Source: Branchiostoma floridae
Taxonomy: Eukaryota
DNA length: 64,000 nucleotides
Assembly (NCBI RefSeq): GCF_015852565.1
Contig: NC_136205.1
Span: 3,066,707 to 3,130,706, forward strand
Direction: 5' to 3'
Shown here: positions 21,674 to 58,738 of the stretch, piece by piece
Position numbering within the stretch: position 1 is the first letter of the stretch
Layout: the number at the start of each line of letters is the position of its first letter
Notes under the pieces: model-generated
Told to the model about the DNA's origin: nothing
Database searches by the model: none
The model's input: only the letters and a program-made list of their open reading frames with translations
Made by a program: the position numbers and the translations under genes

Positions 21674-22902
21674 GTCAGAGGGCAACTGTTCATTGTCCAG
21701 TCAAAAAGCAATGCTTGAGTTGTAACTTGTAACGTATAGAGTCCAGTTGATTCTGTGTATGGATGTAATGTTTTCAGTGTGCCTGGACTTTATGTTTGAA
21801 GTTATTACAACATGTAGAATATATTGAGTACACTGTCTTATAAGTGGCAGGAAGTGATTGAGAAAGTGGTGTCACTACAAAGGTCAGACCTCCAGGAGTG
21901 ACTGGAAATAGAGTCCAGAGGTGGTAGAACTTAGCTATTTATCAGACATGGTAGACATTCCAGGTCATGGGGTCAATGGAAGGGGCCACTAATTCATGGG
22001 GAGGTATTGTTTTCAGTGTTTTTTTTTTGCAGTTACGTATTTTCCATCTGCTAGGTTAGAGTCTGTTCATGCAATACCTAAGGAATTTGTGAGACAAAAA
22101 AAGTATCATTCCATGTTAGAAATAACCATTCTGTCTTTTCTGTTGACAAATTGATTTACACATTTTCTAGATTTCATTTCTGGTACTGGGGAACAAAGAA
22201 AGGACGGACAGCTACAAATGCAGGACGGCGGTGAAACTCGGCCTGCCCGTGGTGTCGCTCGACTACATCGAGGCCTGCGTACAGGCAGGGGAGCTGCTCC
22301 ATACCGACAGCTTCCTATTGGTCGGGAAGAGCGTTGCTGACGAGTTTTCTACGGGCAAAATCGCAGGTAATTAGGCGATTACACGTAACAGATAAAGAAC
22401 ACAGATGTTCTGCCGCACGATGTACGTAAGAATTTGGTGTTCAAATATTTTAATGGCATTTATTTTTATATGGATTGATGCCCTATATTGTTTTTAATGT
22501 AGTACAGTGGAGTTGTACATGTGATGTTCAGAACAATTCAGGATGTTTCCAACTGGACATCCTGCAAGTCTGTACAATTTGAATAAAACTCGTCAAGCTT
22601 GTCAGGTAACAGACTTCACCTCAACTGCTTCAAGTCATTATAGAGAATTGCTAAACTTTCATTCCAACACAAAGATAATGTAGGGACTTAAATTTTCGGT
22701 CGATTTCCGTCAAGTTACCTAATGTTCACAGAATGACCCTTTCTCACTCCAGCAGTGACGTCAGGAAGACACCACTTTTGTAGGTGGGGGTCATAAGTAT
22801 CAGAAAGTCTATGTCGCCCCCCGTCTCTGTTGAGTGTGGGCCGATGGGCTCTGATGTGCAAGGCCTCCTTCACTCCTCGTGCGAAGAAATCCTCAACAGA
22901 GA

Positions 22903-34900: not shown

Positions 34901-37900
34901 TTATCTTGTATTACGTAACACTTTGAAAATTGTTTGGCTGAAAGGCTGATATAAAATCAAACTATTATTAAATAAACTGTTTTCTTCCCCTCTGTAGGTT
35001 GTTGTGTTGCAGTCCTATAAGAATGAAAACAATGTTGCCATCGAGGCCAAGTACGTGTTCCCGCTAGATGACATGGCGGCTGTTGTCGGGTTTGAAGCAT
35101 TCATCAACGGGAAGCACGTGGTCGGAGAGGTGAAGGAAAAAGAGGAGGCACATCGCGAGTACCGACAGGCGATCAGCGAGGGACATGGTGCTTACCTCAT
35201 GGACGAAGAAACTCCTGTAAGATTCTTGATGACTTAAATTCAACAGTTATTTTTGCAGTATTAGTACTGTTAGTAGTATTTTGTGTAATAGCATTGTGGG
35301 TAAAACTGTTTGCTTTGTATTTGAGATTTTGTGTGTTCAAACCCCAGGTGAGTCATAATAGAGAATTTTGAAGAAATTATGTCATACAGTTTGATGCAAA
35401 AGAATGTGTACTGCCTTATACAGAGTTTTGGGTCACAACAAAATAGCAATATACAAGAGGGCCAAGTAAGTATCCTGGTGGAACCCCAACCCTAGACCAT
35501 ATATCTTTTGACAAGAAAAACTAAGTTTCCACTGGTCAGTCTGTGAATGTTTTACTACCTTCTTGTCACTGCGCCAACAAACAATGTTTCAGTGTCAAAG
35601 AGGTACATTCAATGACACATATCTTTTACATACAGTGACAATTGTTATGATTTGTGTTTTTCTAGGATGTGTTTACAGTGAGTGTAGGGAACCTGCCCCC
35701 CAGAGCCAGTGTACTGATCAAGATCACCTACGTCGCTGAGCTGGCAGTGGAGGGAGAAAACATCTGCTTCAGACTGCCTGGCAGCGTCGCTCCCTGGCAG
35801 GTGTGTTTGTCTAGAACTTTGTTACCATGGCAACAAGACGTTGTTATCTCCGTGTACGAATGATTCATTCTGTTTTTTTTATATTCTTGGTGTCCGTAGT
35901 TATTTGAATACACTGTCAGTAGATTTTGAGTGTCAGGAAGTGAGTGGGAAAATGGTGTCACAGTGTAAACTTGGGAGAGTGACAGTTCATGAAAGTATCA
36001 GACATGACAGGTCATCGGGTCAATGGAAGAGGCTACTAATTTCACGGGGAGACTATTTTTTTGTCTGTGTATTTGCAGTTATGCATTTTCCACATGCAAG
36101 TCACACTCACTATAGAGTAACAGGAAACAATCATTATTTAATGGACATATAATAAATGTAATAAGGACTTCGAACTCTTGTTTTGGATGTTGAGATAATA
36201 TGTACATTGTATAATGTTTGTTTGATCACAACTAAGATTATTCAAAGATTTTTTAAGCTTAGATTTTCCACCAACAGAAAGATTCACTCTCTGAGAAGAT
36301 CCAAAAGGACCTGGAAACTGTCAAGGTGGAAAAGGATGCTGGGAAAGAATTCTCCCTCCAGGTCGCCATGGAGATGCCCTTTGACATCAGGACCATCCAA
36401 TCACCATCTCACAAAATCAGAGTGAAGGTAGAAATTACTTCCATGACCTGTTTTGACTCAGCCAAGGCACTCTGTTTCTTTGTCACTAACCATTCTGTTA
36501 TAATTACAAAATGTACTTTGAAAATGCTGATGAGCTTTTGCAAACAAAACAATAAAAACAGTCTTGAAAACAATTATCCAATCAGAGGACTAGATTTTTT
36601 TTAGAATGTTCCTAAATAATGTATTGCATGCTCAGAAATGATTAATGTCATCTCTGACTACTGAGGGCATAATTTTTGTCCTGTAATTTTCTTTGATTTT
36701 TCTTGCTATCCTCTTATATTTTATGAATATACTATTAGATGATAAAGCAGTGGTTTGATAATAGATATTACTTCATTCCTCAGTTATGAATTTAGATGAA
36801 ATGGTTATCTGTGTGTAGGGTCAGAGAACGACTCGGCATAATTATAAGTTTCTCTTTATCCCCACCAATCAGAGGACAGCAAGCAAGGCTGTAGTGGAGC
36901 TGGAGAAGAACTGCATGCTGGGAGCTGGTTTCCTGCTGCAGGTTGGGCTGGCTGAGATCCACGTACCCAGGATGTGGGCGGAGCGGCACCCTGACAAGGA
37001 CAGCCAGGTTTGTTGGTTTGTTTGAACTTTAGCATGAAAGCTCATCTGTGTTGGTATAATCGATACTGAAGGTTTTTAATTGTCATTCAACACAAGAAAT
37101 TGCTCTCCTCGAATTTTCGGTAGCACATCCGTCAACCTTTGACAGGAGTGGTGGTTCAATTACTCTAAACATGTGATGTAGGAACACGAATGAAGAATCG
37201 TAGATGCTTGGCAAGCGGTATCGGCCCCCGTCTCTGTTAAGTGTCGGCTAGTGTGATCTTATGTGTATGGCCTCCTTTACCCCCCTCGCGAAGTAATCCG
37301 GTTCAGTATCCAATATTTGTGCTTTGTTTTAACTTTGTTTCTTCATAAAAGCTCAAATTGTCCTGCAGGCTGCTTTTCATTGAGGTCATGAGGGAAGAGA
37401 CAAGGGTCAGACTAAGTGTATAACAGAGATACAATACAGTTAATGATGATATGCATTCTTTGATTAATATCATCATATAGCAGGATATCAGTTGATGATA
37501 CTCTTTCCTCTTTTTATTTGAGGGACTGAAAAAGTCACAAAGTTGTGTTTAAGGGTTGAACTATGCCATCTCTTTTTTTAAACCCTCTTCATTATACACA
37601 GGACTGTGAGGGTCAACAAGTTATACTAAGTCTTATGTGGGGGTGAAGTCTGCTATCTCTAATGATTTTACTTAAAAAAAATCTGTTCATACACAGGCCT
37701 GTATGCTGACCTTCTACCCAGAATTCCAAGCAGAGGTTATGCAGGGTCATGAGGTCATCCTCCTCTTGGACGGGTCCAACTCCATGCGGGGGTCAGCTCT
37801 GGAGGCAGCCAAGAAAGTCGCCCTGCTCTGTCTGTGCCATCTACCAAAGGAATGTAGCTTTAACGTTGTTGCTTTTGGCACAGGTGTGTTCTTAATCATT

Positions 37901-40900
37901 TTCATTTTGAAAACAGATTTGCAATGGAATATGATTCTATTTAACTTTCTTTGGTGCTGATTGGCTATCACACGATGCGGTCTCATTTCAAATGATTCTA
38001 TTTACCTTTCCTTGGTGCTGATTGGCAATCACATGAGGCATTCTCATTTGAAATAATTTTATTTACCTTTCATTGGTGCTGTTTTGCAGATTTGTAACGG
38101 AATACAAAATAGTCTGAAGCTTCTGTACGTTGGTGCAGTCGCTGTAGAAGAGCAATTTGAAAGAGTGCTCAACAAATTTCATCGATGAAATATCAAACGT
38201 TTGATAGGATATAGCCCTTATTCATGTCCTTGTTAGGTATTGTGATGTAACTAGTTTTTCTTTATAAACTTTACAAATTCCATTTTGTAGGATATGAGGA
38301 ACTGTTTGCTGTGAGCCAGTCCAGAACCAAGTCCAATGTCTCTAAGGCTGAAACCTTTATCCAGGTATAGTCTTCATCTCATTGTTATTGAGCATTATAA
38401 CTTATCCCATGTAACTGTCTTTCAAGGTTTATTAGGCAAGAAAACAGTATACTGTTCCTTTTTGTTTGCCATTCTAATGAAATCTTGTTTCATCTGTCCT
38501 TGGTGCTGATTGGCTGTTGCATAGGTAGTCTTCTCCTATGTAATGATTATAAACTTATCTTACCTTGGTGCTTATTGGCTGTGACATAAAGAAGTCCTCT
38601 TTCAAATGATTCTATTTCATCTTTCCTTGGTGCTGATTGGCTATCACATAAGGTGGTCTCATTTCAAATGATTCTATTTCATCTTAAGTTGGGTTCTGAT
38701 TGGCTGTGACATTAAGCAGTCTCCTTTCAAATGATTATATTCTATCTCTCCTTGGTGCTGATTGGCTATTACATGAGCAGTCTCATTTCAAATAATTTTG
38801 TTTTATTTAGTTAATGCTGATGGCTTGGAATTTAGGCAGTCTTCTTTCAGATGGTTCTATTTTATTTCTCCTTGGTGCTGATTGGCTATCACATGAAACA
38901 ATCTCATTTCAAATGATTCTATTTCATCCTACGTTGGTGCCAATTGACTATCACATGAGGCGGTCTCATTTCAAATGATTATATTTCATCTTACATTTTA
39001 CTGATTGGCTGGAACTTGAGGCAGTTTCTTTCGAGTGATTTTATCTAGCTTTCCTTGGTTCTGATTTGCTATCATCTCATGCAATGTTATTAAAACTAGT
39101 CTATTTTATCTCTCCTTGGTGCTGATATGCTATCACGTTGTGTAGTCTTTTATCTAAGTACTAGTTTTATCCCACCATTTATACTGAATGTCTCTTGGAT
39201 AATCCCATTTGATATCTGATTTCTCTTCCCTTACTAAATATCAAAACACAGCAAACCATACACTTTTTGTAGGTGATTTTCAGTAGTGATACATTTGACA
39301 AGAAAGCCATAGAAAGAAAAATGTTCTTACCAATTTCTGCAATTATTTTATCAGAATGTCAAAGCATCCAAGGGAAACACAGATGCATGGAGACCCCTGC
39401 GTGGGTTCTTCCTGCTTCCGCCGTTGGGTAAAACACGGAACGTGTTCCTCATCTCTGACGGACATGTGAACAACCCTGACCAGACTCTGAGCGACATCCA
39501 CCAACATTACCAGGAGACTAGGGTCTTCAGCTGTGGTGTGGGGTAAGGACAAATCTCACAAGATTTTGTGTACTATTCCTTGAACCTTGAACCTTGACCA
39601 TTCAAGATTCAAGATATAACAAATTGATCCTGACTGTCCGTAATAATTAGCAACCAATGACACTACTGGGAGACAAGGGTCTTCAGCTGTGGGGTGGGGT
39701 AAGAATGCATCTCACAAGATTTTGTGTACTGAACTTGATTCTACTGGAAGATACATTTGTAAGTCAATGTGTAACAACAGACAGATCCTGGCTGTCCATC
39801 ACAATTAGCAGTTTAACCAATGATGGTATGGTAATTAGTGTTTAGATTGGCTGCAGTCTCGCAGACATTTGCATTTTTCTGTTTTATATCCTATCTTCTG
39901 CTGGAGGTGGATGGGGCTATATGAGATTGGTCTACTGGTTAAGATTTGGAGACTTACTTCATGACTTTTTAGTTACTTTTGTCACTCTTTTTCAACAATA
40001 ATAATATGTAAGATGGAAATAGAACAATTGAACATCACAAAGTCTGTAGAACTCATATGAAAATGATTAGTTACAGAGATTGCCTTCCAACATAGCAACC
40101 TTCCATTTTTTTTTCATGTAGAATGTAGCAACAACACAATAATTCTTGATGCTTGTTTTTAGGTCAACTTCCAACAAACATTTGCTGCGAGCCTTGGCCA
40201 GGGTGGGAGGGGGCGCCTTTGAGTATTTTGATGATAAAACCAAATCCAAGTGGGAAAAGAAGGTAAAGTCTATCATTTTATATCATGAACATGTAATATG
40301 TTTCATCGTTTCCCATAAAGTTTGCATTGCATGTATATCTTAATCTATATTGTCATTTATCAATAATTACTTTTAATACTCAATTTCATATACTTTATTA
40401 GGCTTTTATGCATTTTGTTATTTATGTATGAATATCAAAACACATAATTCATTACATACTCTCAGGCATACTTTCATACACATGTGCACACATAATTTTT
40501 ATACAAACACACAAACATACACATAGGCACAGAGACACAAACACACACACACACACACACACATACACACACCACTAAGGTCATCTAAGGTCAGGACACA
40601 CATACCTATATGGTATCAAGTTACATATACTAGGGCAGTATGCAACGGAAAGGTATATAAGTGCGAACTTTGTGTCAGCCTCAAACCTCAGAAGATATTG
40701 AATGTGCACAGCAAAACTGGTTTGGCTGACCAGCTAAAAGTTACACACTGAAACTTGTAGCTCCAGATGTCTTACTGAGGGATGACTGCAGTGCAAAATA
40801 TGTTGGTAGCTTAAAGAATGAGTCCACTCAACTTTATACATAATACACACAACACACATAGGTACACAGACACAAACACACACACATACACACACACACA

Positions 40901-43900
40901 CACACATGCACACACATGCATGTACAATCATGTGTACACTGAGAAGATATTAAAGCAAAGCTTAAACCTCAAGTTTACTGTGTTTGATATAGTGACTAAT
41001 ATACATGTAGATGTATCTAAAACCCTGTCAAATTCCTAGGTGAAAGCCCAGCTGTGGAAAGCTGCCCAGCCCGGCCTGACGTCCATGTCAGTTGATTGGC
41101 AGCAGTGGGATGATGATGCCCCGCCTCCTGTCCAGGCCCCCAATCAGATCGTCTCTCTCTTCAACGGTTTCCGTCAAGTGGTGTATGGCTACGTCCCACA
41201 CTGCACTCAGGTCAAAACATTCCAATATACATGTAGTACCTGTCAACTTGTAAACCTGAGTCTGTAAACTTGTAAAATGCAAAACTTTGTACTAATTTGT
41301 ACCAGGTCTCAATGTTGTGCTCTTTGGAATTTAGGCACAATATCCACACTCATCAGAATGAATACCACAGTATCCATTTTTATTAGAATGAATACCTAAC
41401 TGTTGTTAGTGTCACTAAAATGAGTGATGCTGAAGAAGAGTGATGGATGTCACTTGAAATGTCCGTTTTTTTATCCAGTTGTTGGGATTGAATTGTATTT
41501 GAATATTGTTTACCTGGGTGTCCAACCTTCATAAAGGACTTCTCAAACTAATCTGAAACATGGCTAATCATTCTAAAATGAAAAAGTTTGTAATTGAAAT
41601 TACTGTAAATGTATTTAAGTTCGCGGCGATTTAATTTTGCGGGAGTGGGAAATGGACTTTTCACCGTGGTTTTAATTTTGCAGTAACACCATAGACTACA
41701 GTCTAATACCATAAAGAAAAATGTTCGCGGTGGTTTTAAGTTTGCGGTGAGGTGGTCTCCGCGAAAACAGCTAGCATTAATCCACCACGAACATTTCTGC
41801 ATTTACAGTATTGTTTTTATTTATTCCAGGCCACCCTGAAGGCTGTCATCAACAACCGGGAAATCAGCACCATGGTCTCCACCACTGAACTCAGCATCAC
41901 CACAGGCAAGGTGGGACAGGTTTTTGGCTACACCTCTGGGGTGGAGGCCATATTTCTTTTTAATAGCTGGGATTATTTCCTGTAACCAGGCATTTTAATT
42001 TGTTTGTTGATTGTTTATTTAAGGATTGAGACCTATACTAAACATACATGAGCAAAAGAGAAATAAAGCAACAGCTGCAGTAACAACACAGAATAAGAAC
42101 ATTCATACAACATTTTGGCAACTGTCTGTCACCTTCCTCAGAGCAATTCTGAGGGCCACTACACATTTTAGCTAAGGTGTCGCTGCTAGCAATGCACGTT
42201 AGGAACTATGACAGCCATTTATGCGTTCCCAAATATAACATTATACATATAACATATATTGATCACAATGATTGTTGTCATATATAAAATTACAGATGCC
42301 GACAGTCAGTAGATCCTGGTTGTGAATAAAAAAAATGTTACATTATAATAGTGATTTTCCAACCTGACTAAATGATTCAAAGGACTAACCACACAGTTTT
42401 GTCCCAGATCCTGCACCAGCTGACGGCCCGTGCTGTCATCAGAGACTGGGAGGACGGGACCCTGCATGCAGACAGGATGCACCATGAGGTCAGCGTGTTC
42501 TAAATCCTGACATTGAGAATCAGTGTGGTATTCCTCATGTCATGTGTGGCTGTGCTGGGTGGTTGTCTTTGTAGTACCGTAGCACAGTTTTCGTTGCTCA
42601 TTTGTACATTCTGCGGTCATGATCTTCTAATGGTTGATAGGTCTTTGGCTCATGAAAAAGTGGTATAATTTTGGGCCCTCTGGCAGCTTTTTTTAAACTG
42701 TAGGAGGCGATGTTTGAAAAAAAGAGTAAGGCAGGTAGGGGTTGACGGATTGTCACAATTTTTGCTATGTAGATGGCTTAAGAGATAATTGACATACTTA
42801 GTTGGCTTGTGTAAAGGGGTATAGTTTGGGGCTCTTTGGCAGCTTTTTTTGTAACTGCAGGAGCAGGATCTTCATGAATTTTGGTTAAAAAAAAACTTTG
42901 TAGATGGCTTTAGAGATAATTGACATGCTTATCTTTCTCTCTTTTTTTCCAGACAAAGAAAATGGGTCTGAAGCCGTACATTATCGACCTTAGTAAGGAG
43001 TACTCCATCGTCACACAGTTCACCAGCTTTGTAGCTGTGGAGAAGCGGGAAAAGGTGAGAAAAATTTTGGTGACACCAAGGGAACAGAACTTGTACTTGT
43101 AACAGTTACTGTAAGTGTGGAAATAACTCATAAGCCAGAGCGAAAAAAAAAAAAATCCATGAAAACAAAAATTCTGCCAAACCACAGGACTAAACATCCA
43201 GACCATTTTTTCCCAGGCTTGGTTTGTCTTATGGTCCACATCCAGTAAACCTGTAAGATACAATCATCGCCATTTCAATAAATATTTATTCATTTATTGC
43301 TATTCTTGTTCAAAGAGGGGAACGCCCCATGCCCTGACCATTTGCCCCCTTACCCTGAGGAGCGGATCCTCTGACAGTTATAAAATTCTGATTAACCAGG
43401 GGTAGTTTAAGGACAAACGTGGGCATAGTTTGTTTGTTTTTTGAGAAAAGGGGAAAAGCAACACACTCACGGATGTTATTCATAGAATGAAGTCAGTGTG
43501 GCCTATGACATAATGATTGTTTGATGCAGGATGAAGATCTGACTACCGGTGAGGGTCCAAGCATCACAGAACTGGTGGAAAAAGAGAGTGTGGACATCCT
43601 ATCCTACATGGGATGGGAGAGGGACAAAGGGGAAGAGGAGGCAGAGGAAGTGTATAAGGTATGAGCCAAATTAAAGTGGAATTTTGGCTTGCTTTAAAAT
43701 GAAAGATTTTTGTGAAGAAAATCAAGTACGTGTGCCTTAAATTTTTTGACTGGACATCGCATAGTTTCTTGTATTCAATTTCTAGAATAAAGTGCTTGAT
43801 GGACAGATCACAGAAAAGGCCATTGAACACAGCTTGGAGTTCTACACCACTGCAGTGGAGACTGCAAAAAGGGAGCTTCCCCCAACCCATCCAACAGTGT

Positions 43901-46900
43901 TGCAGTCACAGCTCTCTTTGGCAATGTTTTATCACAACAAATTGAATATGCAGGACAAGGCCTGCCTGGTTGCAAAGGCTGCCTTTGACGATGCGATCGC
44001 GGAGTTGGATACTCTGAGCAAGGAAAGCTACAAGGACTCGACCTTGGTGATGCAGCAGTTGAGAGACAACTTGACATTGTGGTCTGCTGAGGACGGGGAA
44101 GAAGAGAAAAAAGCCAACGAAAAGAAAAAGGTCCTTATTCCTAGTGTCAACCATAGCTCACTTTGGCTAATCAACCTTCTCGGATGAAGCCCATCTTACA
44201 TACCCAACCATGGCCTCGCGACCTTCTCCAGACCATGGTTGGGAGTTAAGCCCCTGTCACACATAGCCGACCATGCCCTCCCAACCTTCTTCAGACCATG
44301 GTCAGGAGTTAAGCCCTTGTCTTACATACCTGACCATGGCCTCCCAACCTTCTCCAGACCATGGTCAGGAGTTAAGCCCTTGTCTTACATACCTGACCAT
44401 GGCCTCCCAACCTTCTCCAGACCATGGTCAGGAGTTAAGCCCTTGTCTTACATACCTGACCATGGCCTCCCAACCTTCTCCAGACCATGGTTGGGAGTTA
44501 AGCCCGTCTTACATACCCAACCATGGCCTCGCGACCTTCTCCAGACCATGGTTGGGAGTGAGACCATCAGTAATTTGGACCAGACCAAACTTGGCAAAGT
44601 CATATTCTTCTAAGGTGCAAGCAGATTGGTAAAATGGAATATGGTTGGTAGCAAGTCATTGAAAGGTCCTGAATTTGTGACAGGGGATGTGACTAGTACA
44701 TAATTTTGCATGGAAACGGGAATAGACCGACTGAGTGTGCTTGTTAAAACTAAGAGTAGATTATCTTCAAGACCAGAATCTTCAAATTACCAATTGAATT
44801 TATCATAACTTTTCTATATTTGATGTTGTCAACAGGTCATAGAGGAAGTTTATTATGAAGAGGTTTTAATGGGAGGTAAGATACCAATTAATCTTTAATT
44901 TACATTTAGTTTAACCTTGTATTAAGTTGGAATTTATTGAATGGTTGATCATGAGATTTCAACACCAAGGACTCTATTGAAATGCACATCTTGATTTTGT
45001 TTTGGTATTTTTATTTTCCAACTTCTAGACTTGGATGATTTTGACATGGAGGACCCTGAGTATCTAGAAATGGGAGGTGCTGGTGTTTCCTCCAGCACAG
45101 AGGAGACAGAATCTGATGACTCGTGGGGATCAGATTCAGATCTAGATGAAGAGAGTGAATGTGAGGAAGGTAAGAAACTAGTTGGAAATCTTTAACGATG
45201 TATCTGCCCATCATTGCCAATCATCATCATCATATCTTGTCGCTCCATCTCCTTATCCAGCTGCGGGCTGCCTCATTGGCCTCTCTTAAGCTAAGGGCAC
45301 AACCTGCCGTACATACAATTTGTCTGTATGTTTTTTTAGGCCACGTTCCCCACATATGTCTGGAAACGCTTCGTCCGTACTGGCACATAGGGGGGCAAAT
45401 CCGCAGCCCGAGGGCACACAAAGTTTTGCCTGCACGTAAAGTTCTACAGCGTGTCTGCGTGCTCCGTCGGATTCTCTACGAGTTTGTATGGAGGCGGTAC
45501 TTACCACTTACGGATCCCAAAAGATTGCCCACGTATTTGCATGTACAGCGGGCTGTGCCCTTAGCTTTAGGTCACTGTCCGAGCAGGTTGGGCCAAGTTC
45601 ACAGTTTTGTAACAGATGTTGTATTGTTTGCAGCTCTGCTCAGTATGGGCAGGCTGCACTTGCAGATTTGTCCAATTTCATTTCCAATAACGTTTTCCCT
45701 AGAGTTTTGTTTATTTGATGTTTTTGGTTTTGATGTTGCTTAGACTGGAGATGGTTCGCTAGACCTAGTGGTTGACCAGTCAGGTTTGACTCACTGTGGA
45801 CTGCATATTTACTTTTGAATTATTCTATTGTAAATGCCCATATGGTTGTTTTATGTTCACAGTTTCACTGTTGCCGCTTTACCACATACTCAAACCACTA
45901 GGAACATTTCTCCATGACAGTAAATTGTTGCTACAGTATATGGTGCTATTGCATGTGAACTCAAAAAGTCCATTTTCCTGCTTCTGCAAAATCAGATCCC
46001 TGCAAACTTAATTGCATGTACTGTATCTTGTTCACAGGAGGTAAGGAAACAGTAAGAAAGAAAGATTCATCATCACCAGAGGAGGAAGAGAGTGAAGAAG
46101 AGATGGGGTTTGGATTGTTTGATGATGGTGAAGGTAGGATGGCAGGTGAGATGGTAGAGTACTGTAAATCTTGAGATGCATGGTTTTCATGGTGACATCT
46201 CCACCATGATACAATCGCCATACAAACAGCCCGGCTGGGCCCTGGGTTATAGAAATGTGACTTAGTCCTTACTGTTACCTAGTTTAATAAAAGAGACAAC
46301 GAAAAAGAACTGCAGTCAAAAATCATACTTTTGACACTTTTTGTTGGGCTCCGTTTTTCAAAGACACTAACTCTTGAATCTTTCTATTTCTTCAACAGCT
46401 GCTGATGAAAAAGAGGGTTCTCCTCTTGCTGATACTTATCAGATGAAGGCTAATGCCTTGCAATTGGAAAAAGGTCGATTTGCATCTCCCATGAGGTCTA
46501 GATCAAGGTCAAGGTCAGATAAACATTCCTCTCCAGCATACAGCCCGACATCTCCAGCATATAGCCCAGCATCTCCAGCATATAGCCCGACTTCACCTAC
46601 TGAGGAAGCCACAGAGGCTGAGTACACAAAGCCTAAACCTCTAGCTCGGAAAATGGCACCAAAACGGGTCGAAAAGGAGAAGGCACCAAGCCCACACTTC
46701 TCAAAGATGTCTGCAACGTTCTTGACCCGAGAATCTGAAAGGGGAAAGTCCTCATACAGAGTGTCAGATGAAGTTCAGGCTCGTGTAGATCGCCTTGATG
46801 ATCTAGTAGAAAAAGCTGATGCTCTTAGTGCACAAGCTGCAATATTTGGTGCTTCAACAACCATTTCTAAAGATGATGGCCTCTTTGCCGGTTCAACAGA

Positions 46901-49900
46901 GGCAAGTGTGCAGAAACCTAAACCTTTTGAATCCAAGCCAGGTATCGTTCAACCTGCCAGATTTACTTATGAAGCAACACCAGATACTACCAAGGGTCTT
47001 TTTGGCAGAAAGGCTGAACCAGAGACTGCAGGGTTTGCTCTTGCCCAGTCTGTGGCCGCAGAAGAGCCAGCTCCTGCTTTTGGTTTTGGAGCTCCAGTTG
47101 CAAGCTTTGGTGCAGAAACTTATGGAACTCGTGGTGTAGACTTGGATGCACCCATACCGTATGGCAAAATCCCAGTTGGTGGAACGCCGTTTGGTGAAAC
47201 GCCAGTTAGTGGAAAGCCGTTTGGTGAATCTGCTGTAAAGTTTGGAGGTCCTCCTGGCACTGTAGCTGGCACAAAGACGCAAGAGACTGCATTTGGTCAG
47301 GGTTTTGGTTATGCTTCAAGTCGTGGTGTAGGCTTTGGTAAAGCAACATTTGGTGAAGCAACATATGGCACACCATTTGGTGGAACACCATTTGCTGCAA
47401 CCACAGGTCTTTTTGCCCACTCAACTGCACCAAAGGATCAGGAAGCTGTGTCATTTGGTTTTGCTCCCTCTACTGACCAGAGCACAAGGGGTGGTGGAGG
47501 ATCCGCAGGTGGTTTTAGCTTTGGTTGGACTGCATCATCAGATTTGGGACAGAGGGATCGAGACAGGAGCTCCCCCCTAATTGGTGACACAAAAAAAGGA
47601 TTCAAGTTTGGAGCCTCACTTGAAGAGAAAGAAGAAACAGCAAGCTTTAGCTTTGGTGGATCCAGCCAGAAAGTGGTTCCTCAAGCAGGTTTTGGAGCTG
47701 ATCAACAGATGCAGCAGCAACAACAGCAACAACAACAACAGGCTCAGATGAATGTCTCTGATACTGCTCCTCAGAGGAAGATGCGAAGCAGGCTTCATGG
47801 CGCTATAGCTACCTTAAGTGAATCCAGTCAAGCAGAAATGGTTCCTGAAGCAGGTTTTATCTCCAATCAACGGATGCAGCAGCAACAGGCTCAGATGGAT
47901 GTTCTTCTTACTGCTCCTCCGAGGACAGGTGGTGGAAGGGTTCATGGCGCTTTAACTAGATTAGACGAATCCAGTCAAGCAAAAGTGGTTCCTCAAGCAC
48001 GTGTTGGCTCTCGAGCTCCTCAAAAAGCGAGGAAGACAACTGGCGGCAAGGCTGTTAGAGTTTCTTCAGGATTCAAGGACAGCTTGGACATCGTAGACAA
48101 GAGTTCACGCGACACTGGTGACTCTTGGAGAGCTGTCAAACGGACCGAGACCCCCATGGCTGGTTATTTTGACATGAGGGCCATGTCCCCTGCCTCAACA
48201 AATTCTGCACAGTCAGTTGCTTTTCAACAGCTGTCAGCATCTGCTGCCTTTCTACAGGCACCCCCTCCTGCGCCACCCCCTTGTTCAACAGGCCCCCCTC
48301 CTCTTCCACCCCGCTGCCCAGCAGGACCCCCTCCTCCAGCTGGTGCCCCTCCCCCACCACCACCACCCCCTAAGGGCATTCAGCTTCTTAAACCAAGAGC
48401 AAGTTTAAAGTCCAAAGCAGTAATGGCAGCACCCATGCGTGCACTATCCATGCCCTCGAAAGAATATGCCCCATTGCCCCCTCCTCCTCCAAGTTCAGTC
48501 GAACAGGCACCAGAGCTACCAGCATGGGATAGAGAAGAAGAACTGCAAATGGGGATTGTTGAAGAAAGCCGTGCAATTGCTTCGTATGAACAGATGGAAG
48601 AGTTAAAACCATTGTCAAGAAGTTTGGAATTGAGACAAAAGAAGAAAAAGAAACAGTTCGAAATCCAGGCAAGGTTGGAGGAAGAAAAGGTATCATTGGA
48701 CAAAGTCATGTACATGGATGAAAGCGTTCAAGAAGGAGAGGAAATGTACAGGTAAGAGTGAAGTCAACAAAGTACAGTCTCTACCTAATTAGATGAATGT
48801 GAAATTTTCCACAAATCGGGGGAATATTTTATCTGAGAGCTTGCAATTGCCTGGTTAATGTAGTACAGGCTTGTCCGCTGAAGATTGTAACTTGTAACTG
48901 TAGCCCTTTGGCCAATTTCTACTGATTTTTCACATAAACCACAGTCTCATAGGGACTAAATGAAATGTTTGATTTATGTAATTGTGGCAAACATGTTGCC
49001 TACCTGAGCTTTTCAAAGGAAAAATGTAAAGTTTCAATAAAGTTAACGTAAATTACTTTCAAGGACCAATTTAGGGACTATTCTTGACAATTGAACTACA
49101 TGTAAATCCAAGGTTACACAAAGCTTACCATAAAAGTGTACAACTTGTGATAACAGTCATTATTTTCCACATAAAGCAGTGTTCAAGTTTGTGGGCACGG
49201 GTCAATGGTATGCAAATGTATTGTGTCGTCTTAACTTTATTCTTTAAAGTAGGGGTTCTTTGCATTGAGCAATTTCATGATATTCATACAATGCCACATC
49301 GTTGTAAACACCACAGAAGACAGTATCTCTTTTGTTTAGTATTTTTGTTTGATGTCAGCCTGTTGTTACATGATTGTGTATAATTATGCCTTTGTCATCT
49401 TGTTCATGACTTTTGTAACATGTATTACAAACTTTATTTCAGGACCAGTTTGAGGGGGTTTTACGGTCCAAGAAGAGGTCCCGGTGCATATCACTCTGCC
49501 AGCTTTCATCTAACCTCAGGTAGGTTAATCAATTCATGTGCAAAGTAAGGCTAATATCAGTAGTCTAAGACTAGATGGAGAGCTTTTTTATATAGTCATC
49601 CAAAGATCTAAACTTCATTGAAATATCATGATAGGACCGTTGATCATTGAAATAGCATTGAAAGATGTTGTAGGTCACTAAAATATCATTAGTAAGACCA
49701 TACTTCAAATGGGGGCATGGGTTCGTATCCCACTTCTGACACCATATTGGCTTAGAGATTATCTCAGTCGTAGACTTAAAATGCTCAACATTTCTTGTCC
49801 CAAAGAACTAATTGCCAAGGTACAATGGACCTGTAAATACTGTACACAGTGTCCATCTTACCTGTCATGACCAGTGCAGATGTTAGTAATGACTGACTAA

Positions 49901-52452
49901 GAAAAAAGAAATTGCACAAATGTCTAATCTGAAAAATGATGCTCACAAGTAATCATGTTTTTTTTCAACCCTCTGCAGGTTCCTTTAGTGGAAGAGAAAT
50001 TGATGTAGTACCTGTCGTGACCACAAGGGGGAGGGTCATCACAGAGACAACTGTTGACCAAATCTTTGCACTGCTAAAGGTATCATTTGTAATTATTGGT
50101 TCAAATATAAAGTATAGTAGCTCTAGTTTTAGAGTGATGAATTACTGTAACATTAACACTGAATTTATTCTTTTTTGAGTGGGAGATTAGAATTGGTCTT
50201 GCACCCATCCATAATTTGACTGTTTTTTTGACAGTTTACTGCGTACTCGGATGCCAAAATGTTCTTTTATTCTTTATTGCAGGCGCTAATAGGCCCATAG
50301 TAAAAGCCTACTGTATAAGACACACAACATAACATAGATATTAAAACAACAATGCCACTCTATGTGTACAAGCGCCTCCTGATGTTTTTGAAATATTATT
50401 GTGTTATGGTAGAAAGAATCCAACTAGATGGAATGGGAAGAGTGGAAAAGCGGAATATACAAAAGAACGTTTGCGTCATGATAGAGTAATATTAGCATAG
50501 ATAATACCATAGTTTACTCATATAGCTAAAACCCAAGGATAAAACAATCAAATTTAATTATATTGCCCCCCTCCCCAGCACACTGACCAGGGGCTCTCCT
50601 ACTGGGAGTTCAGTCCAGAGTTAGACGAGTTGCTTGGGATTTCCAGTCAGCAGTGCATCCAGATATTTAACACTGCAGGACTCAAATCTCTGGGTAAGAT
50701 CTCATTCATGATCATGGTCATAAGGATATGTGTCCATACATGTAGTCAGGTCAGATGACAACTGTTTCCCTCCTGTCAACAGTCTTTCAGCCTGCAAAAA
50801 GAATCTTCACATCTATTTCCTTGCATGATACTAAGTAATTTTCGCAAACCCATCAACTTAGTTCATTGCCTAGAAGTGGTCAAATGGTCTTGCTTTGATC
50901 AAGCCATATTGCATTAACAAAAGGTAAAGAAATGAAATAAGGAATGAATGAAGACCTTTATTCTACATTTTTGCCCAACTGAACTAAGCACAGGTCACAA
51001 GAAAGACAAAACACACAATGTTATGCAAAAGTACAATATTATTTGTATCATAGATCTAATCTAGTGAAGAAGTTTGGCTTCTTCTCCCTTCCTGGTAATG
51101 GTAAAAATGTAGGCTTGTATGTTGTTAGGTTTGTCAAAATGCAACTCATATCTATTAAGTGAATCTACTTCCTATTTCTATCATTAACATAGTGCATAGT
51201 CCAATCAACAACGAAGTGAACTTCATCTTCATTTATCTTCATCTCCAGGTGTGAATGTTGCCAGGCAGATACTGCAGCTGGTGGCCACCTTTGAACAAGC
51301 TCGTACAAAAAACATTGAAAAATACCTTTAAGTTAGCACTGAGTGGGACATAATTTTTTATTTTTATTTTGATCTCCAGGTGCGAATGTTGCCAGGCAGC
51401 TGCTGCAGCTGGTGGCCACCTTGCTGGTTGTGCAGCTGCTGATGCTGCACCTGCCGCAGCTGTTCCCCAGCTGCAGGAGCCTGCTGCACCTGGATGTGGC
51501 GCAGGTGCCGGCCAAGTGGTGCAGTGCATTGCAGCAGGTGCTCACATGGGCCAAGGTAGGATTTTGTACTACAAAACTACCAAAACTAGACTGAGTTTGT
51601 ACTACAAAAACTTAATTTGTATACACTTGTTGCAAGAAGAGGAAAGAGACATGTAAATGATAGATGTAATAATAGTGGCGCAGGCGTCAGCCACTTGGTG
51701 CAGCACACTGCAACAGGTGCTCACATCGGCCAAGGTAGGAGTTACCTACTGATAATATGAGGGGCAATCAATAAGTTTACACAGAAAAAAGGTGCACAAC
51801 TCAAATTTTGGAGCATTATAAACTATATGAATGTGCACCAAAATTCAATGGGCCAAGGTAGGAGTTGGCTACTTAGTATGAGGGGTGATCAATAAATTCT
51901 TGGACTCATGAATAAAGGTGCTTAACTCAGATTTTGGATCTGATGTAAAGTATAAAGTATTATATGAATTTGTACCATAATTCAAATCATTGTGATCATT
52001 ATTGTACAGGCAACACCCAGTAATGGTAGGTAAGAGAGAAGAAAAAACATGGACAATTGAGCTGCAAGCTGAGGTGTGCATGTCAACTTGTTCTGCTAAA
52101 TGTCGGATACTAATAAAAGAATTAGGCACTGAAGAGGACGAATTTGAAAGAGAAATCAAGAAGCTTAAGATCACACCAATGTTCACTCATCAGGTATAAG
52201 CTTTGTTGTACTGTTGACCAATCGCTTACGTGACATGAATTATGAGGAAGACTGCAGTTGAAATTTCTATGTACTATTTTCTTGTGGTGGAACAAAATTT
52301 TAATTCTGTTATCATATAAATCTATTCGTTTATTAATTTTTCTATTTTCACAGAGTGTTGACACGATGCACCCATCAGTGTACTCCCGTTTGGAGCTTGG
52401 GAAGAGTTGGGAGGACCTGACCACAAAGCTGATCGGTGTCAGCAATGCATAG
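21542..52452 (+). CDS. PARP4: Gene model (39 coding exons): vault poly(ADP-ribose) polymerase (PARP4/VPARP) homologue. Domains: BRCT, PARP regulatory and catalytic, VIT, vWA, long disordered mosaic linker, C-terminal vault-interaction region.
   Basis: Colinear by-eye similarity to human PARP4 across all globular parts. Examples: [119 protein letters not shown]. All exon phases are consistent. ATG at 21542, TAG at 52450-52452. Confidence 0.9.
22171..22366 (+). CDS. PARP4: PARP4 exon 2 (BRCT, C-terminal part)
   Basis: [65 protein letters not shown]. ttctag/gtaatt. Confidence 0.85.
22636..23133. mobile_element. Foldback element with about 230-bp arms and a central G36 homopolymer (PARP4 intron 2)
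   Basis: Left arm cattatagagaattgctaaactttcattccaacac... The right arm is its reverse complement, ending at 23133. G-run at 22904-22939. Confidence 0.8.
23247..23545 (+). mobile_element. 5'-truncated copy of the SINE-like element seen at 11360-11900
   Basis: gggcatgttcgggcatga...ggaagtcctcctag...gcatctgctgg..cacacgttgcatacagttg is colinear with 11567-11815. Confidence 0.7.
23715..23775 (+). CDS. PARP4: PARP4 exon 3
   Basis: (A)[19 protein letters not shown]. ttccag/gtaagg. Phase 1 to 2. Confidence 0.7.
23978..24101 (+). CDS. PARP4: PARP4 exon 4
   Basis: [41 protein letters not shown]. Compare human QDFEVAKYNTLEK. cttaag/gtgagt. Confidence 0.75.
24484..24615 (+). CDS. PARP4: PARP4 exon 5
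   Basis: [44 protein letters not shown]. taacag/gtgaga. Confidence 0.75.
24762..25111. mobile_element. MITE with cagggctcgaaat termini (intron 5)
   Basis: 13-bp perfect TIR. The interior holds many gggtgcac repeats. Confidence 0.65.
25290..25454 (+). CDS. PARP4: PARP4 exon 6
   Basis: [55 protein letters not shown]. taccag/gtaagt. Confidence 0.75.
25835..26005 (+). mobile_element. Interspersed repeat family B copy (intron 6)
   Basis: Colinear with 8363-8535. Confidence 0.7.
26092..26229 (+). CDS. PARP4: PARP4 exon 7
   Basis: [46 protein letters not shown]. Compare human VSDLVEMIWAEALGHLEHML. ctgtag/gttcgt. Confidence 0.8.
26893..27069 (+). CDS. PARP4: PARP4 exon 8 (PARP regulatory/helical domain)
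   Basis: [59 protein letters not shown]. Compare human AEGILLLVKAALKNGETAEQLQKMMTEFYRLIPHK...KKADLCQ. Confidence 0.85.
27073..27426. mobile_element. hAT-type MITE (family D), copy 2, inserted 3 nt into intron 8
   Basis: 16-bp perfect TIR cagggctctagccagc / gctggctagagccctg. 8-bp TSD gtcaggta at 27065-27072 and 27427-27434. Confidence 0.85.
28013..28176 (+). CDS. PARP4: PARP4 exon 9 (regulatory to catalytic junction)
   Basis: [54 protein letters not shown]. Compare human LIRDMVNVCETNLSKPNPPSLAKYRALRCKIEHV. Confidence 0.85.
28199..28382. repeat. (GAGT)n microsatellite, intron 9
   Basis: gagtgagtgagt... for about 180 bp. Confidence 0.95.
28694..28885. mobile_element. Foldback MITE, intron 9
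   Basis: ccccctcacattag...gagtctgcgagctctaaattacgaggaggcatgaccctga, with its reverse complement forming the second arm. Confidence 0.7.
29065..29173 (+). CDS. PARP4: PARP4 exon 10 (catalytic; His of the H-Y-E triad)
   Basis: [36 protein letters not shown]. Compare human VLQIFRVGRVNETTEFLSKLGNVRPLLHGSPVQ. Confidence 0.85.
29363..29391 (+). CDS. PARP4: PARP4 exon 11 (29-nt microexon)
   Basis: AQNFVGILS. Compare human NIVGILC. tttacag/gtaggc. Needed for frame continuity. Confidence 0.75.
29827..29922 (+). CDS. PARP4: PARP4 exon 12 (catalytic; Tyr of H-Y-E)
   Basis: [32 protein letters not shown]. Compare human [31 protein letters not shown]. Confidence 0.9.
30280..30605 (+). repeat. Two extra tandem copies (152-bp period) of the acceptor and 5' half of PARP4 exon 13 (pseudo-exons)
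   Basis: Copies start at 30302 and 30454; the real exon starts at 30606. Both extra copies diverge after GATGTGTA into TCAACACGGCATCGATTCCTAA, which gives an in-frame stop. Confidence 0.85.
30606..30789 (+). CDS. PARP4: PARP4 exon 13 (catalytic)
   Basis: [62 protein letters not shown]. Compare human LSTSIKYSHPGETDGTRLLLICDVALGKCMDLHEKDFSLTEAPPGYDSVHGV. Confidence 0.9.
31017..32610 (+). mobile_element. 5'-truncated non-LTR (LINE) retrotransposon: reverse-transcriptase C-terminal part plus 3'UTR, in PARP4 intron 13, same orientation as the gene
   Basis: ORF 31113..32291, open upstream to 31017. RT motifs: [44 protein letters not shown] (YxDD). (CAAA)n tail at about 32595-32610. Confidence 0.85.
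32794..32837 (+). CDS. PARP4: PARP4 exon 14 (catalytic Glu of H-Y-E)
   Basis: [14 protein letters not shown]. Compare human DDEFVVYKTNQVKM. ttacag/gtatgt. Confidence 0.85.
33018..33185. mobile_element. MITE family C, intact copy (intron 14)
   Basis: Termini acagtagaagcca ... tggcttctactgt. Colinear with the split copy at 18330-18488 and 19697-19712. Confidence 0.75.
33803..33921 (+). CDS. PARP4: PARP4 exon 15
   Basis: [40 protein letters not shown]. Compare human KYIIKFSMPGDQIKDF. Confidence 0.85.
34405..34541 (+). CDS. PARP4: PARP4 exon 16 (VIT domain start)
   Basis: [46 protein letters not shown]. Compare human AGLQDASGNLVPLEDVHIKGRIIDTVAQ. Confidence 0.85.
34998..35216 (+). CDS. PARP4: PARP4 exon 17 (VIT)
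   Basis: [73 protein letters not shown]. Near-identical blocks to human PARP4. Confidence 0.95.
35666..35800 (+). CDS. PARP4: PARP4 exon 18 (VIT)
   Basis: [45 protein letters not shown]. Compare human [26 protein letters not shown]...ATVAPWQ. Confidence 0.95.
36278..36427 (+). CDS. PARP4: PARP4 exon 19
   Basis: [50 protein letters not shown]. Compare human QSFSLTMSIEMPYVIEFIFSDTHELKQK. Confidence 0.85.
36873..37007 (+). CDS. PARP4: PARP4 exon 20
   Basis: [45 protein letters not shown]. Compare human RTDCKAVISTMEGSSLDSSGFSLHIGLSAAYLPRMWVEKHPEKESE. Confidence 0.9.
37697..37883 (+). CDS. PARP4: PARP4 exon 21 (vWA domain with MIDAS DxSxS)
   Basis: [62 protein letters not shown]. Compare human ACMLVFQPDL...VIICLDCSSSMEG...VNIIQFGT. 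Confidence 0.9.
37925..38090. repeat. About 60-bp minisatellite with a ggtgctgattggct core (CCAAT-box-containing), intron 21 block
   Basis: Three units. Same family as 38480-39175. Confidence 0.8.
38291..38364 (+). CDS. PARP4: PARP4 exon 22 (vWA)
   Basis: [25 protein letters not shown]. Compare human GYKELFSYPKHITSNTMAAEFIMS. Confidence 0.85.
38480..39175. repeat. About 60-65-bp minisatellite (about 11 units) with a ccttggtgctgattggct core, intron 22
   Basis: Repeated tcatttcaaatgattctatttcatct(t/c)tccttggtgctgattggctatcacat units. At least ten intact ATTGG (reverse CCAAT) across both blocks. Confidence 0.85.
39355..39542 (+). CDS. PARP4: PARP4 exon 23 (vWA)
   Basis: [63 protein letters not shown]. 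Compare human MGNTDFWKTLRYLSLLYPARGSRNILLVSDGHLQDE...RLFACGIG. Confidence 0.9.
40163..40262 (+). CDS. PARP4: PARP4 exon 24 (vWA end)
   Basis: [33 protein letters not shown]. Compare human STANRHVLRILSQCGAGVFEYFNAKSKHSWRKQ. Confidence 0.9.
40505..40572. repeat. (CA)n microsatellite, intron 24
   Basis: acacacacac run. Confidence 0.9.
40843..40922. repeat. (CA)n microsatellite, intron 24
   Basis: cacacacaca run. Confidence 0.9.
41040..41210 (+). CDS. PARP4: PARP4 exon 25
   Basis: [57 protein letters not shown]. Compare human SVSVKWQQLNPDVPEALQAPAQVPSLFLNDRLLVYGFIPHCTQ. Confidence 0.9.
41405..41535 (-). mobile_element. Interspersed repeat family B copy, reverse orientation (intron 25)
   Basis: The reverse complement matches gacacccaggtaa...caactgga...cggacatttcaag of the 8363-8535 type. 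Confidence 0.55.
41601..41810. mobile_element. MITE family A, full copy, 20 bp upstream of the PARP4 exon 26 acceptor
   Basis: tactgtaaatgtatttaagttcgcgg ... cacgaacatttctgcatttacagta. Confidence 0.8.
41830..41910 (+). CDS. PARP4: PARP4 exon 26
   Basis: [27 protein letters not shown]. Compare human [27 protein letters not shown]. Confidence 0.9.
42408..42488 (+). CDS. PARP4: PARP4 exon 27
   Basis: [27 protein letters not shown]. Compare human MIHKLAARALIRDYEDGILHENETSHE. Confidence 0.9.
42953..43054 (+). CDS. PARP4: PARP4 exon 28
   Basis: [34 protein letters not shown]. Compare human [34 protein letters not shown]. Confidence 0.9.
43530..43658 (+). CDS. PARP4: PARP4 exon 29
   Basis: [43 protein letters not shown]. 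Compare human VSELIAKEDVDFLPYMSWQGEPQE. 129 nt, phase 0-0. Confidence 0.85.
43786..44130 (+). CDS. PARP4: PARP4 exon 30 (candidate cassette): in-frame exon encoding the C-terminal half of a 14-3-3 protein
   Basis: [115 protein letters not shown]. Compare 14-3-3 zeta [71 protein letters not shown]. tttctag/gtcctt. 345 nt, phase 0-0. Confidence 0.65.
44185..44575. repeat. 63-bp minisatellite (about 6 units) immediately 3' of the 14-3-3-like exon
   Basis: Unit gttaagcccttgtcttacatacctgaccatggcctcccaaccttctccagaccatggtcaggag. Unit starts at 44308, 44371 and 44434. Confidence 0.9.
44836..44875 (+). CDS. PARP4: PARP4 exon 31 (40 nt; acidic, Tyr-rich)
   Basis: [13 protein letters not shown]. caacag/gtaaga. 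Shifts the phase from 0 to 1, as required to enter exon 34. Confidence 0.6.
45029..45169 (+). CDS. PARP4: PARP4 exon 32 (acidic linker)
   Basis: [47 protein letters not shown]. ttctag/gtaaga. Phase 1-1. Confidence 0.6.
46038..46133 (+). CDS. PARP4: PARP4 exon 33 (acidic linker with a ribosomal P-stalk-tail-like motif)
   Basis: [32 protein letters not shown]. ttcacag/gtagga. Phase 1-1. Confidence 0.6.
46399..48751 (+). CDS. PARP4: PARP4 exon 34: 2.35-kb exon encoding a low-complexity/disordered region (RS run, CTD-like heptads, FG repeats, polyQ, H3-tail-like peptide, polyPro)
   Basis: Part of track ORF 46374..48755. Acceptor ttcaacag at 46391-46398, donor ACAG|gtaaga at 48751/48752. Phase 1 in and phase 2 out, matching the neighbouring exons. 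Confidence 0.8.
49443..49519 (+). CDS. PARP4: PARP4 exon 35
   Basis: (R)[25 protein letters not shown]. tttcag/gtaggt. Phase 2 to 1. Confidence 0.65.
49979..50079 (+). CDS. PARP4: PARP4 exon 36
   Basis: [34 protein letters not shown]. ctgcag/gtatca. Phase 1 to 0. Confidence 0.7.
50579..50693 (+). CDS. PARP4: PARP4 exon 37 (C-terminal vault-interaction region)
   Basis: [38 protein letters not shown]. Compare human QTEDGFWKLTPELGLILNLNTNGLHSFLKQKGIQSLG. Confidence 0.85.
51380..51555 (+). CDS. PARP4: PARP4 exon 38 (C-terminal region)
   Basis: [59 protein letters not shown]. Compare human VKGRECLLDLIATMLVLQFIR...ISRNIPWAFEAIKQASEWVRR. Confidence 0.8.
52354..52452 (+). CDS. PARP4: PARP4 exon 39 (terminal, with stop)
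   Basis: [32 protein letters not shown]. Compare human QYPSICPRLELGNDWDSATKQLLGLQ. ttttcacag acceptor, phase 0. Confidence 0.85.
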   Translation, partial: SVDTMHPSVYSRLELGKSWEDLTTKLIGVSNA

Positions 52453-58389: not shown

Positions 58390-58639
58390 CGAGCAGTTTG
58401 CAAACTGACATGATACCGGGTACCATTTGCTTCGGTGCCCGCAAGGAGCCCTGATGCCACAAAATGTTCCGGTGGACTGCCGGAGTGACTGGGAGGAGGT
58501 ACCTCTCGGTACTATTATGTTTATTGCAAATTCTTGCAGTAGAAAAGTAGTTGAAAGTTCTATGCACTATTTTCCCATGTTGAAATGTTTTGATTCTGTA
58601 ATACATTCATTCTTTTATTTTTCCTTTTTTTTCTCACAG

Positions 58640-58738
58640 GGTGTTTACGCGATGCACCCATCAGTGTACTACCGTTTGGAACTTGTGAAGAGTTGGGAGG
58701 ACCTGACCACAAAACTTATTGGTGTCAGCAATGTGTAG
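58640..58738 (+). pseudogene. Duplicate of the PARP4 terminal exon (99 nt, intact ORF and stop), 6.3 kb downstream of the real one
   Basis: [32 protein letters not shown], versus exon 39 [32 protein letters not shown]. Preceded by ttctcacag. The upstream approx. 100 bp also resemble 52240-52350. Confidence 0.7.

Follow-up and report, generated by a model that had tools for sequence, protein, structure and literature searches.

A stretch of 64,000 nucleotides from the amphioxus Branchiostoma floridae (assembly GCF_015852565.1, contig NC_136205.1, positions 3,066,707 to 3,130,706 of the forward strand, referred to here as the window) was found to encode three tandem heptads of the type that the RNA polymerase II (Pol II) subunit RPB1 carries in its C-terminal domain (CTD). 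They follow a short run of Arg-Ser (RS) dipeptides and stand with it at the start of a 2.35 kb open exon (46399-48752), in a locus identified by its domain content as amphioxus PARP4 (vault PARP). The heptads are a selected short linear motif, neither a product of chance nor a young neutral repeat, and it is probable that they function in docking or as a phosphorylation site, with a putative partner. The reading tentatively favoured here, as quite possible, is that of a conserved short-linear-motif cluster in the amphioxus PARP4 linker which may act as a platform of the CTD type.

The segment around the two elements was translated over 46482-46622 in the exon frame of the + strand, on which all features given below also lie unless otherwise stated. 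The peptide MRSRSRSRS is encoded at 46491-46517, of which the (RS)4 run itself takes up 46494-46517 (codons AGG TCT AGA TCA AGG TCA AGG TCA, with ASPM just before). Direct reading of the sequence gives next an SSPA lead-in at 46527-46538, a partial heptad covering positions 5-7, the SPA of which is kept in B. lanceolatum as LSPA. The three heptads at 46539-46601 are in register and read YSPTSPA (46539-46559), YSPASPA (46560-46580) and YSPTSPT (46581-46601), corresponding to 6/7, 5/7 and 6/7 matches to the consensus YSPTSPS, and an acidic tail, EEATEAE (46602-46622), comes directly after the third. The initial annotation, made from the letters of the window, had reported the RS run and three heptads with these match counts, and both were reproduced with coordinates exact to the base. 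At the DNA level, Tandem Repeats Finder reported a 21-bp unit repeated 3.0 times (score 103, with 87% matches and no indels) at 46530-46591 and an (AGGTCA)x4 hexamer array of period 6 at 46494-46517. The 25-residue heptad block packs 7 of the 18 [ST]P sites of the whole exon. An open reading frame on the minus strand, 46439-46627, was rejected as an antisense shadow of the repeat with no evidence supporting it.

The motif YSPxSP, even when relaxed to [YF][ST]Px[ST]P, was matched nowhere else in the six-frame translation of the window (64 kb), and from the composition of the exon the number expected is 0.002 for single matches and about 1e-14 for in-register triplets. A chance origin of the triplet was thereby ruled out, in agreement with the initial annotation, which had judged it to exceed what chance would produce in register; the relevant null is the duplication of one motif, which was examined by codon analysis as described below. 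Among 5.8 billion proteins, the matches of the segment outside amphioxus were essentially only RPB1 CTDs, and those in the PDB sequence set were RPB1 CTDs or CTD peptides, showing that the YSPTSPA variant is also present in genuine CTDs, for instance that of yeast. The likeness to the Pol II CTD claimed at the outset thus holds, the heptads being in register and nearer to the Pol II CTD than to anything else in the databases searched. They are not members of the RPB1 CTD family, having three repeats, the wrong host and a Pfam score below the cut-off. No RPB1 domain was found in the host locus, whose domains are BRCT, PARP, VIT, vWA and MINT, and no literature connecting PARP4 with CTD-like heptads was found.

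The window was compared with two other amphioxus loci, one of B. belcheri (L001) and one of B. lanceolatum (L002, reached via the MINT gene of that species). The heptads of B. lanceolatum number exactly three and occupy the same place in identical register, with 7/7, 7/7 and 6/7 matches to YSPTSPS and thus two perfect units, within an open frame of 763 codons; the unit orthologous to heptad 1 lies at L002 8219-8239, that of heptad 2 reads YSPTSPS and that of heptad 3 reads YSPTSPA-EETTKAE. The initial annotation had named absent conservation or a variable register as what would speak against its claim, and neither was seen in this species. The splice acceptor of the exon is common to the window and B. 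lanceolatum (ttcttcaacag/CTGC, the slash marking the exon start) and near-identical in B. belcheri (ttctttaacag/C). In B. belcheri, on the other hand, a single heptad is present (AYSPTSPT, L001 23638), the RS run being reduced to SRS. The conservation in orthologues proposed as a check was therefore borne out by the three heptads and the RSRSRSR of B. lanceolatum, but not by B. belcheri, and because of the latter neither the heptad copy number nor the RS run is genus-wide. Either two copies were lost in B. belcheri or they were never gained there.

Synonymous codons that distinguish the individual copies are common to the window and B. lanceolatum, namely CCG ACA TCT in unit 1, CCA at Pro3 in unit 2 and CCG ACT TCA CCT in unit 3. 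Consequently, the copies are orthologous one by one, and the triplication is older than the split of the two lineages. As to the parental subgenome of the window, the protein identities of MINT were uninformative, but at the DNA level the window is nearer to B. lanceolatum than to B. belcheri. The synonymous divergence (dS) of the domain exons was 0.33 between the window and B. lanceolatum as compared with 0.61 between the window and B. belcheri. Together with the published phylogeny ((belcheri, japonicum), (lanceolatum, floridae)), dated at about 87 and about 72 million years ago (Mya) (PMC6305399), these values suggest that the window represents a B. floridae-derived haplotype. The heptads have been kept since the split from B. 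lanceolatum, dated at about 72 Mya (PMC6305399), in an exon whose protein is as a whole just 38-47% identical between congeners. Protein searches for orthologues returned one entry each for the hybrid described below, B. belcheri and B. lanceolatum, and none for B. floridae or B. japonicum. A query with the region after the vWA domain of PARP4 matched only short metagenomic or partial fragments, and human was the one species in which PARP4-wide presence of the heptads could be checked.

Selection was examined between the window and B. lanceolatum from the proportions of synonymous (pS) and non-synonymous (pN) differences and the corresponding rate ratio (dN/dS). The 21 heptad codons gave a pS of 0.29, a pN of 0.07 and a dN/dS of 0.18, compared with 0.48, 0.34 and 0.57 for the rest of the large exon and 0.27, 0.06 and 0.20 for the folded-domain exons. 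The pN of the heptads differs from that of the rest of the exon at p = 3.7e-5 (Fisher), and no other window of 21 residues in the exon is as well conserved as the heptad block, with its 18/21 identical residues. The heptads are thus under purifying selection comparable to that on the folded domains (0.18 vs 0.20), within an exon that as a whole evolves fast relative to the rest of the gene (dN/dS about 0.57 vs about 0.20) and for which a dN/dS above 1 was not seen in this pairwise comparison (0.57).

The three copies of the window and the single copy of B. belcheri were also compared among themselves, giving a pS of 0.35-0.71 and a pN of 0-0.07. The DNA similarity of the heptad copies, 76-86%, is close to that expected for identical peptides with randomised third positions, and therefore the duplication is old and has been held at the peptide level, in place of a young array. 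All replacements fall at heptad position 4 (T/A) or 7 (A/S/T), while Y1, S2, P3, S5 and P6 are invariant in 7/7 copies even as synonymous changes occur in the codons for Tyr, Pro and Ser5. In the fission yeast CTD, Y1, P3, S5 and P6 are essential whereas S2, T4 and S7 are dispensable (PMC4574753); with small numbers, the variation of the amphioxus heptads agrees with these essential letters.

The RS run proved to be real, but its description in the initial annotation as SR-protein-like is overstated, the run being 8 residues long and its fourth unit slippage-like. Of the Arg-Ser codon pairs, the first three (AGG TCN AGA TCA AGG TCA) are common to the window and B. lanceolatum, where the peptide is RSRSRSR, that is (RS)3R. 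The fourth unit, a perfect extra AGGTCA missing in B. lanceolatum, looks like a product of replication slippage. An RS domain is defined by at least 50 residues with more than 40% RS content, accompanied in SR proteins by an RRM, and no RRM was detected when the exon and the corresponding NCBI protein P0001 were scanned with Pfam. The run is not an RS domain and the host is not an SR protein.

The assignment of the host to PARP4, which is absent from the initial annotation as is the fast-evolving disordered counterpart of the exon, follows from the order of its domains and from the two regions that flank the exon. Pfam matches in + open frames between 22171 and 37957 comprise a BRCT domain (22171-22371), the PARP regulatory domain (PARP_reg, 26848-27168), the PARP catalytic domain (30538-30801), VIT (34998-35860) and vWA (37676-37957), in PARP4 order on one strand. 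Upstream of the heptad exon, the spliced translation of the post-vWA exons (41040-43156) matched human PARP4 1041-1182 with an E value of 7.5e-45. Downstream, four exons at 49963-52440 matched human PARP4 1576-1705 (E 1.6e-13), the MVP-interaction (MINT) domain, and are 99% identical to the NCBI 'PARP4-like' protein P0041, which bears Pfam PF26156; the local Pfam copy gave no match for the spliced C-terminus of the window, and the identity of MINT was obtained via the human PARP4 PDB sequence. The heptad exon, with 784 codons the largest of the locus, contains the RS run, the heptads, one helix, an FG-rich region, a polyglutamine (polyQ) run and a polyproline (polyPro) stretch, and is 100% identical to the NCBI protein LOC144867646 (P0001) annotated from Branchiostoma floridae x B. 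japonicum. Flanked as it is by homologous regions of human PARP4 1041-1182 and of MINT, the exon is, by position, the counterpart of human PARP4 exon 30. The latter encodes a disordered segment of about 360 residues that is positively selected in mammals and has been proposed as a host-pathogen interface possibly recruiting viral proteins to vaults (PMC4038475), and a long disordered region likewise precedes the C-terminal helical domain (1570-1724) of human PARP4 (PMC10450202).

No Pfam domain scored above threshold in the heptad exon. In an AlphaFold2 (AF2) model the exon appeared unstructured except for two helices, and the RS run and heptads had no secondary structure, with a predicted local distance difference test (pLDDT) score of about 46-53. 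The model was built from a single sequence only, so that a low pLDDT is weak evidence of disorder, with the confidently predicted helix of the exon acting as an internal positive control. Read in this way, the model suggests that the RS run and the heptads lie in an intrinsically disordered and accessible linker.

The locus is partitioned differently by the three annotation sets. In B. belcheri, model P0002 fuses the post-vWA region, the heptad exon and MINT. The NCBI hybrid locus is divided into three models, including a 910-residue 'uncharacterized' protein (P0001) and a 177-residue MINT-only 'PARP4-like' protein (P0041), and in B. lanceolatum there are two, a PARP...14-3-3 gene that stops before the heptad exon and a MINT gene that begins after it, the exon itself being unannotated. 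Either these are real short isoforms or amphioxus PARP4 (locus about 22000-52440) is systematically mis-annotated. Since both flanks are homologous to one human protein, a single ancestral gene would be the parsimonious reading.

Under the favoured reading of a CTD-type platform, an ancestral motif AYSPTSP, of which B. belcheri still has a single copy, would have tripled before the B. floridae-B. lanceolatum split, after which purifying selection would have kept the exact heptad register. Proline-directed kinases would be the candidate writers, phosphorylating Ser2 and Ser5, and the phosphorylated or unphosphorylated array could be bound by readers that recognise one or two heptads, such as CID domains, WW or Pin1-type isomerases, and SSU72- or SCP-type phosphatases. 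The cellular consequence might be the coupling of the protein to the nuclear RNA-processing machinery, or a switch in how the linker behaves, through which PARP4 is anchored via MINT to the vault; the neighbouring (RS)3-4 run would add sites for basophilic kinases as well as charge. This reading is favoured because Tyr1 and the exact spacing of seven residues have been retained, because the variation avoids the essential letters, and because Trf4, Mpp6 and Sen1 provide working precedents for CTD mimicry by sequence in disordered regions (PMC7110113). In human cells, moreover, a nuclear, vault-independent pool of PARP4 is reported to interact with hnRNPM and affect splicing (PMC11265163), and consequently a nuclear reader is conceivable.

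Several points weigh against a CTD-type platform, however. Three repeats are far below any functional CTD, and the gathering threshold of PF05001 (RNA_pol_Rpb1_R), 20.3 bits, was missed by the whole exon (10.4), by a 150-residue segment (16.9) and by the B. lanceolatum sequence (14.7). Vault PARP is mainly cytoplasmic whereas the CTD machinery is nuclear, and any selected [ST]P cluster would constrain serine and proline similarly. B. belcheri manages with its one heptad and SRS. Full-length human PARP4 in the PDB sequence set was unmatched by the heptad exon, and therefore the motif is lineage-restricted and not PARP4-wide. In addition, with the three annotation sets in disagreement, it is not certain that the heptad exon is part of the PARP4 polypeptide.

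The alternative that survives best, possible though rather unlikely, is a generic cluster of proline-directed phosphorylation sites of the CDK1, MAPK or GSK3 type, which would regulate the PARP4 linker without any cross-talk with the Pol II CTD. Such a cluster could serve in compaction, in vault loading or as a switch of the 14-3-3 or Pin1 type, its likeness to the CTD being due solely to a duplicated seed that happened to read YSPTSP. Selection has been demonstrated, which does not by itself identify the reader; multisite phospho-switches typically show such packing as that of 7/18 [ST]P sites into 25 residues, B. belcheri makes do with one copy, and PARP4 is mostly cytoplasmic (PMC12280208). 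What this alternative accounts for less well is the precise form of the repeat. Simple [ST]P kinase sites need neither the tyrosine nor the spacing, yet Tyr1 is invariant in 7/7 copies despite a synonymous TAC/TAT change and the interval of exactly seven residues is kept. Position 7 has, moreover, moved to the consensus serine in B. lanceolatum, and variation is limited to positions 4 and 7, which are dispensable in the CTD (PMC4574753).

The heptads are not the only element around this exon to resemble a peptide of another host protein. The preceding exon (46037-46147) is spliced to the heptad exon in P0001. About 50 residues ahead of the RS run, it encodes a peptide that nearly reproduces the universal tail at the C-terminus of the ribosomal stalk proteins P0/P1/P2; 26/26 PDB matches are tails of P-proteins, and Pfam Ribosomal_60s gave E values of 8e-4 to 6e-3. 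This tail is kept in three species, as DEDMEFGLFD in B. belcheri (L001 about 21729) and DDMMEFGLFD in B. lanceolatum (L002 about 7662). In the ribosomal P-stalk, translation GTPases and ribosome-inactivating toxins dock on this peptide. No literature connecting PARP4 with a GFGLFD or P-stalk motif was found. Further upstream, an open frame at 43786-44184 codes for half of a 14-3-3 protein, the C-terminal one (Pfam 14-3-3 E 1.7e-30, profile positions 128-223; PDB 14-3-3 chains E 3e-33), about 60% identical to 14-3-3 epsilon. This half also occurs in the gene models of B. belcheri and B. lanceolatum, and in a metagenomic eukaryote fragment (P0049) it comes after the post-vWA region; it is unmentioned in domain surveys of human PARP4.

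Within the heptad exon, the confidently predicted helix of 28 residues (46767-46850; pLDDT 92-96 at residues 123-150 of the modelled segment 46401-47300) begins 55 residues after the heptads and shows a weak likeness to the R-SNARE synaptobrevin, with Pfam E values of 0.016 in the window and 6e-4 in B. belcheri, both below the cut-off. The helix is less conserved in B. lanceolatum. It is followed by an FG-rich region (about 46845-47700) holding 18 FG dipeptides against 3.3 expected, with 16 in B. lanceolatum, then by a polyQ run at 47712-47740 and by a proline-rich, FH1-like stretch at 48250-48356, which in B. lanceolatum is a perfect tandem array of an 11-residue motif.

These elements allow the heptads to be seen as one hook in a row of host-peptide look-alikes along the PARP4 linker, made up of the P-stalk tail, the 14-3-3 half, the RS run, the CTD heptads, the SNARE-like helix, the FG repeats and polyPro, which would turn the vault into a bait or decoy for pathogen effectors, toxins or endogenous cargo. 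This explanation is distinctly unlikely. The conservation of the P-stalk copy in three species, the 14-3-3 match at 1.7e-30, the excess of FG dipeptides and the helix with its weak synaptobrevin likeness are in its favour, as is the positive selection on the orthologous vertebrate exon with its proposed role as host-pathogen interface (PMC4038475). On the other hand, the motifs were gathered post hoc with the look-elsewhere risk that this entails, the matches for the SNARE-like, FG and polyPro elements are either weak or a matter of composition, neither a pathogen nor a cargo partner is known, and the amphioxus exon, with dN/dS below 1, does not display positive selection. If it is true, the long-standing view of this exon as a host-pathogen interface would gain a concrete mechanism.

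A functionless, neutral minisatellite or microsatellite expansion in a fast-evolving disordered exon is very improbable. The RS run and the heptads are both tandem DNA repeats, the fourth RS unit, missing in B. lanceolatum, repeats AGGTCA perfectly, the copy number differs in B. belcheri, and the exon overall is 38-47% identical between congeners, all of which would be expected of such an expansion. Against this, the pN of the heptads is 0.07 where that of the rest of the exon is 0.34 (p = 3.7e-5), synonymous differences between the copies approach saturation although the peptides have been preserved, and since the B. lanceolatum split, about 72 Mya (PMC6305399), the number of copies, their register and the codons specific to each have all been kept. 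The specific case of a recent neutral minisatellite expansion, first suggested by the single heptad of B. belcheri, was ruled out by the codon analysis and the B. lanceolatum locus. Least probable of all is that the stretch is untranslated or a mis-annotated exon or pseudo-exon, as its missing annotation in B. lanceolatum and the disagreement of the models among three genomes might suggest, for the open frame is kept over 784 codons in the window and 763 in B. lanceolatum, the splice acceptor is conserved, pN is lower than pS, and the NCBI and B. belcheri models include the exon.

Other features of the locus were noted as well. In the exon of the PARP catalytic domain, a 152-bp unit is repeated 2.8 times with 97% identity at 30278-30706, giving three near-identical open frames; it represents either a very recent tandem duplication in the catalytic region or an assembly artefact. 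The last MINT exon (52340-52440) has a second, diverged copy about 6 kb downstream, at 58637-58726. An intron of the PARP4 locus contains a 424-codon open frame (31017-32288) matching the reverse-transcriptase domain RVT_1 with an E value of 5.6e-22, a retroelement of the long interspersed nuclear element (LINE) type. Two intronic tandem arrays were also found, one at 38428-39136, of a repeat family common with a B. lanceolatum intron (L002 12-1110), and one at 44188-44629, with repeated 21-residue open frames.

Literal Pol II CTD heptads are rare outside RPB1, and those described here occupy the disordered, fast-evolving exon of PARP4 between the enzyme and its vault anchor. Should the CTD machinery read the heptads, vault PARP would be linked to transcription and RNA processing, and a natural case of CTD mimicry at the level of sequence would be at hand in an animal. 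If they are an ordinary phospho-switch, the result is a modest one, a lineage-restricted regulatory motif. In both cases a vague 'disordered interface' is replaced by short, synthesizable peptides with explicit candidates. For the heptads these are CTD kinases and readers, and for the P-stalk copy next to them they are translation GTPases or ribosome-inactivating proteins. CTD-like motifs in proteins other than RPB1 and motifs in the disordered exon of PARP4 are kinds already known.

Among known systems, the RS domains of SR and SR-related proteins share with the amphioxus run its consecutive Arg-Ser dipeptides, but here these amount to 8 residues without an RRM, and to SRS only in B. belcheri. 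The largest exon of vertebrate PARP4 (human exon 30; PMC4038475, with its intrinsically disordered region described in PMC10450202) belongs to the same gene and lies likewise between the ITIH-like/vWA region and MINT. No sequence similarity to the human exon was seen, however; the amphioxus exon is under relaxed or purifying selection with conserved islands and not at dN/dS > 1, and CTD heptads have not been reported for the human exon. With the RPB1 CTD (PF05001) the amphioxus array has in common the unit Y-S-P-T-S-P-[SAT], its tandem arrangement in register, the variation at positions 4 and 7 and an acidic tail after the repeats, as at the end of the yeast CTD; it differs in having three repeats (plus the SPA lead-in) against roughly 26-52, in its PARP4 host and in the lack of a link to the polymerase. 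The Nrd1-interaction motifs (NIMs) of Trf4, Mpp6 and Sen1 (PMC7110113, PMC4186968) offer the concept, a short motif in a disordered region of another protein for which occupancy of a CTD-reader site has been proposed or shown. NIMs, in contrast, are acidic and hydrophobic, imitate the phosphorylated CTD without heptads and have proven binding to the CID of Nrd1, whereas the heptads here are literal and their binding putative. Finally, although the C-terminal repeat region of Spt5 (PMC4066402) has another repeat unit and another host, and Spt5 travels with Pol II, it constitutes a second repetitive and phosphorylatable platform that is read by CTD-associated enzymes, and it is in this feature of Spt5 that the amphioxus heptads would resemble it.

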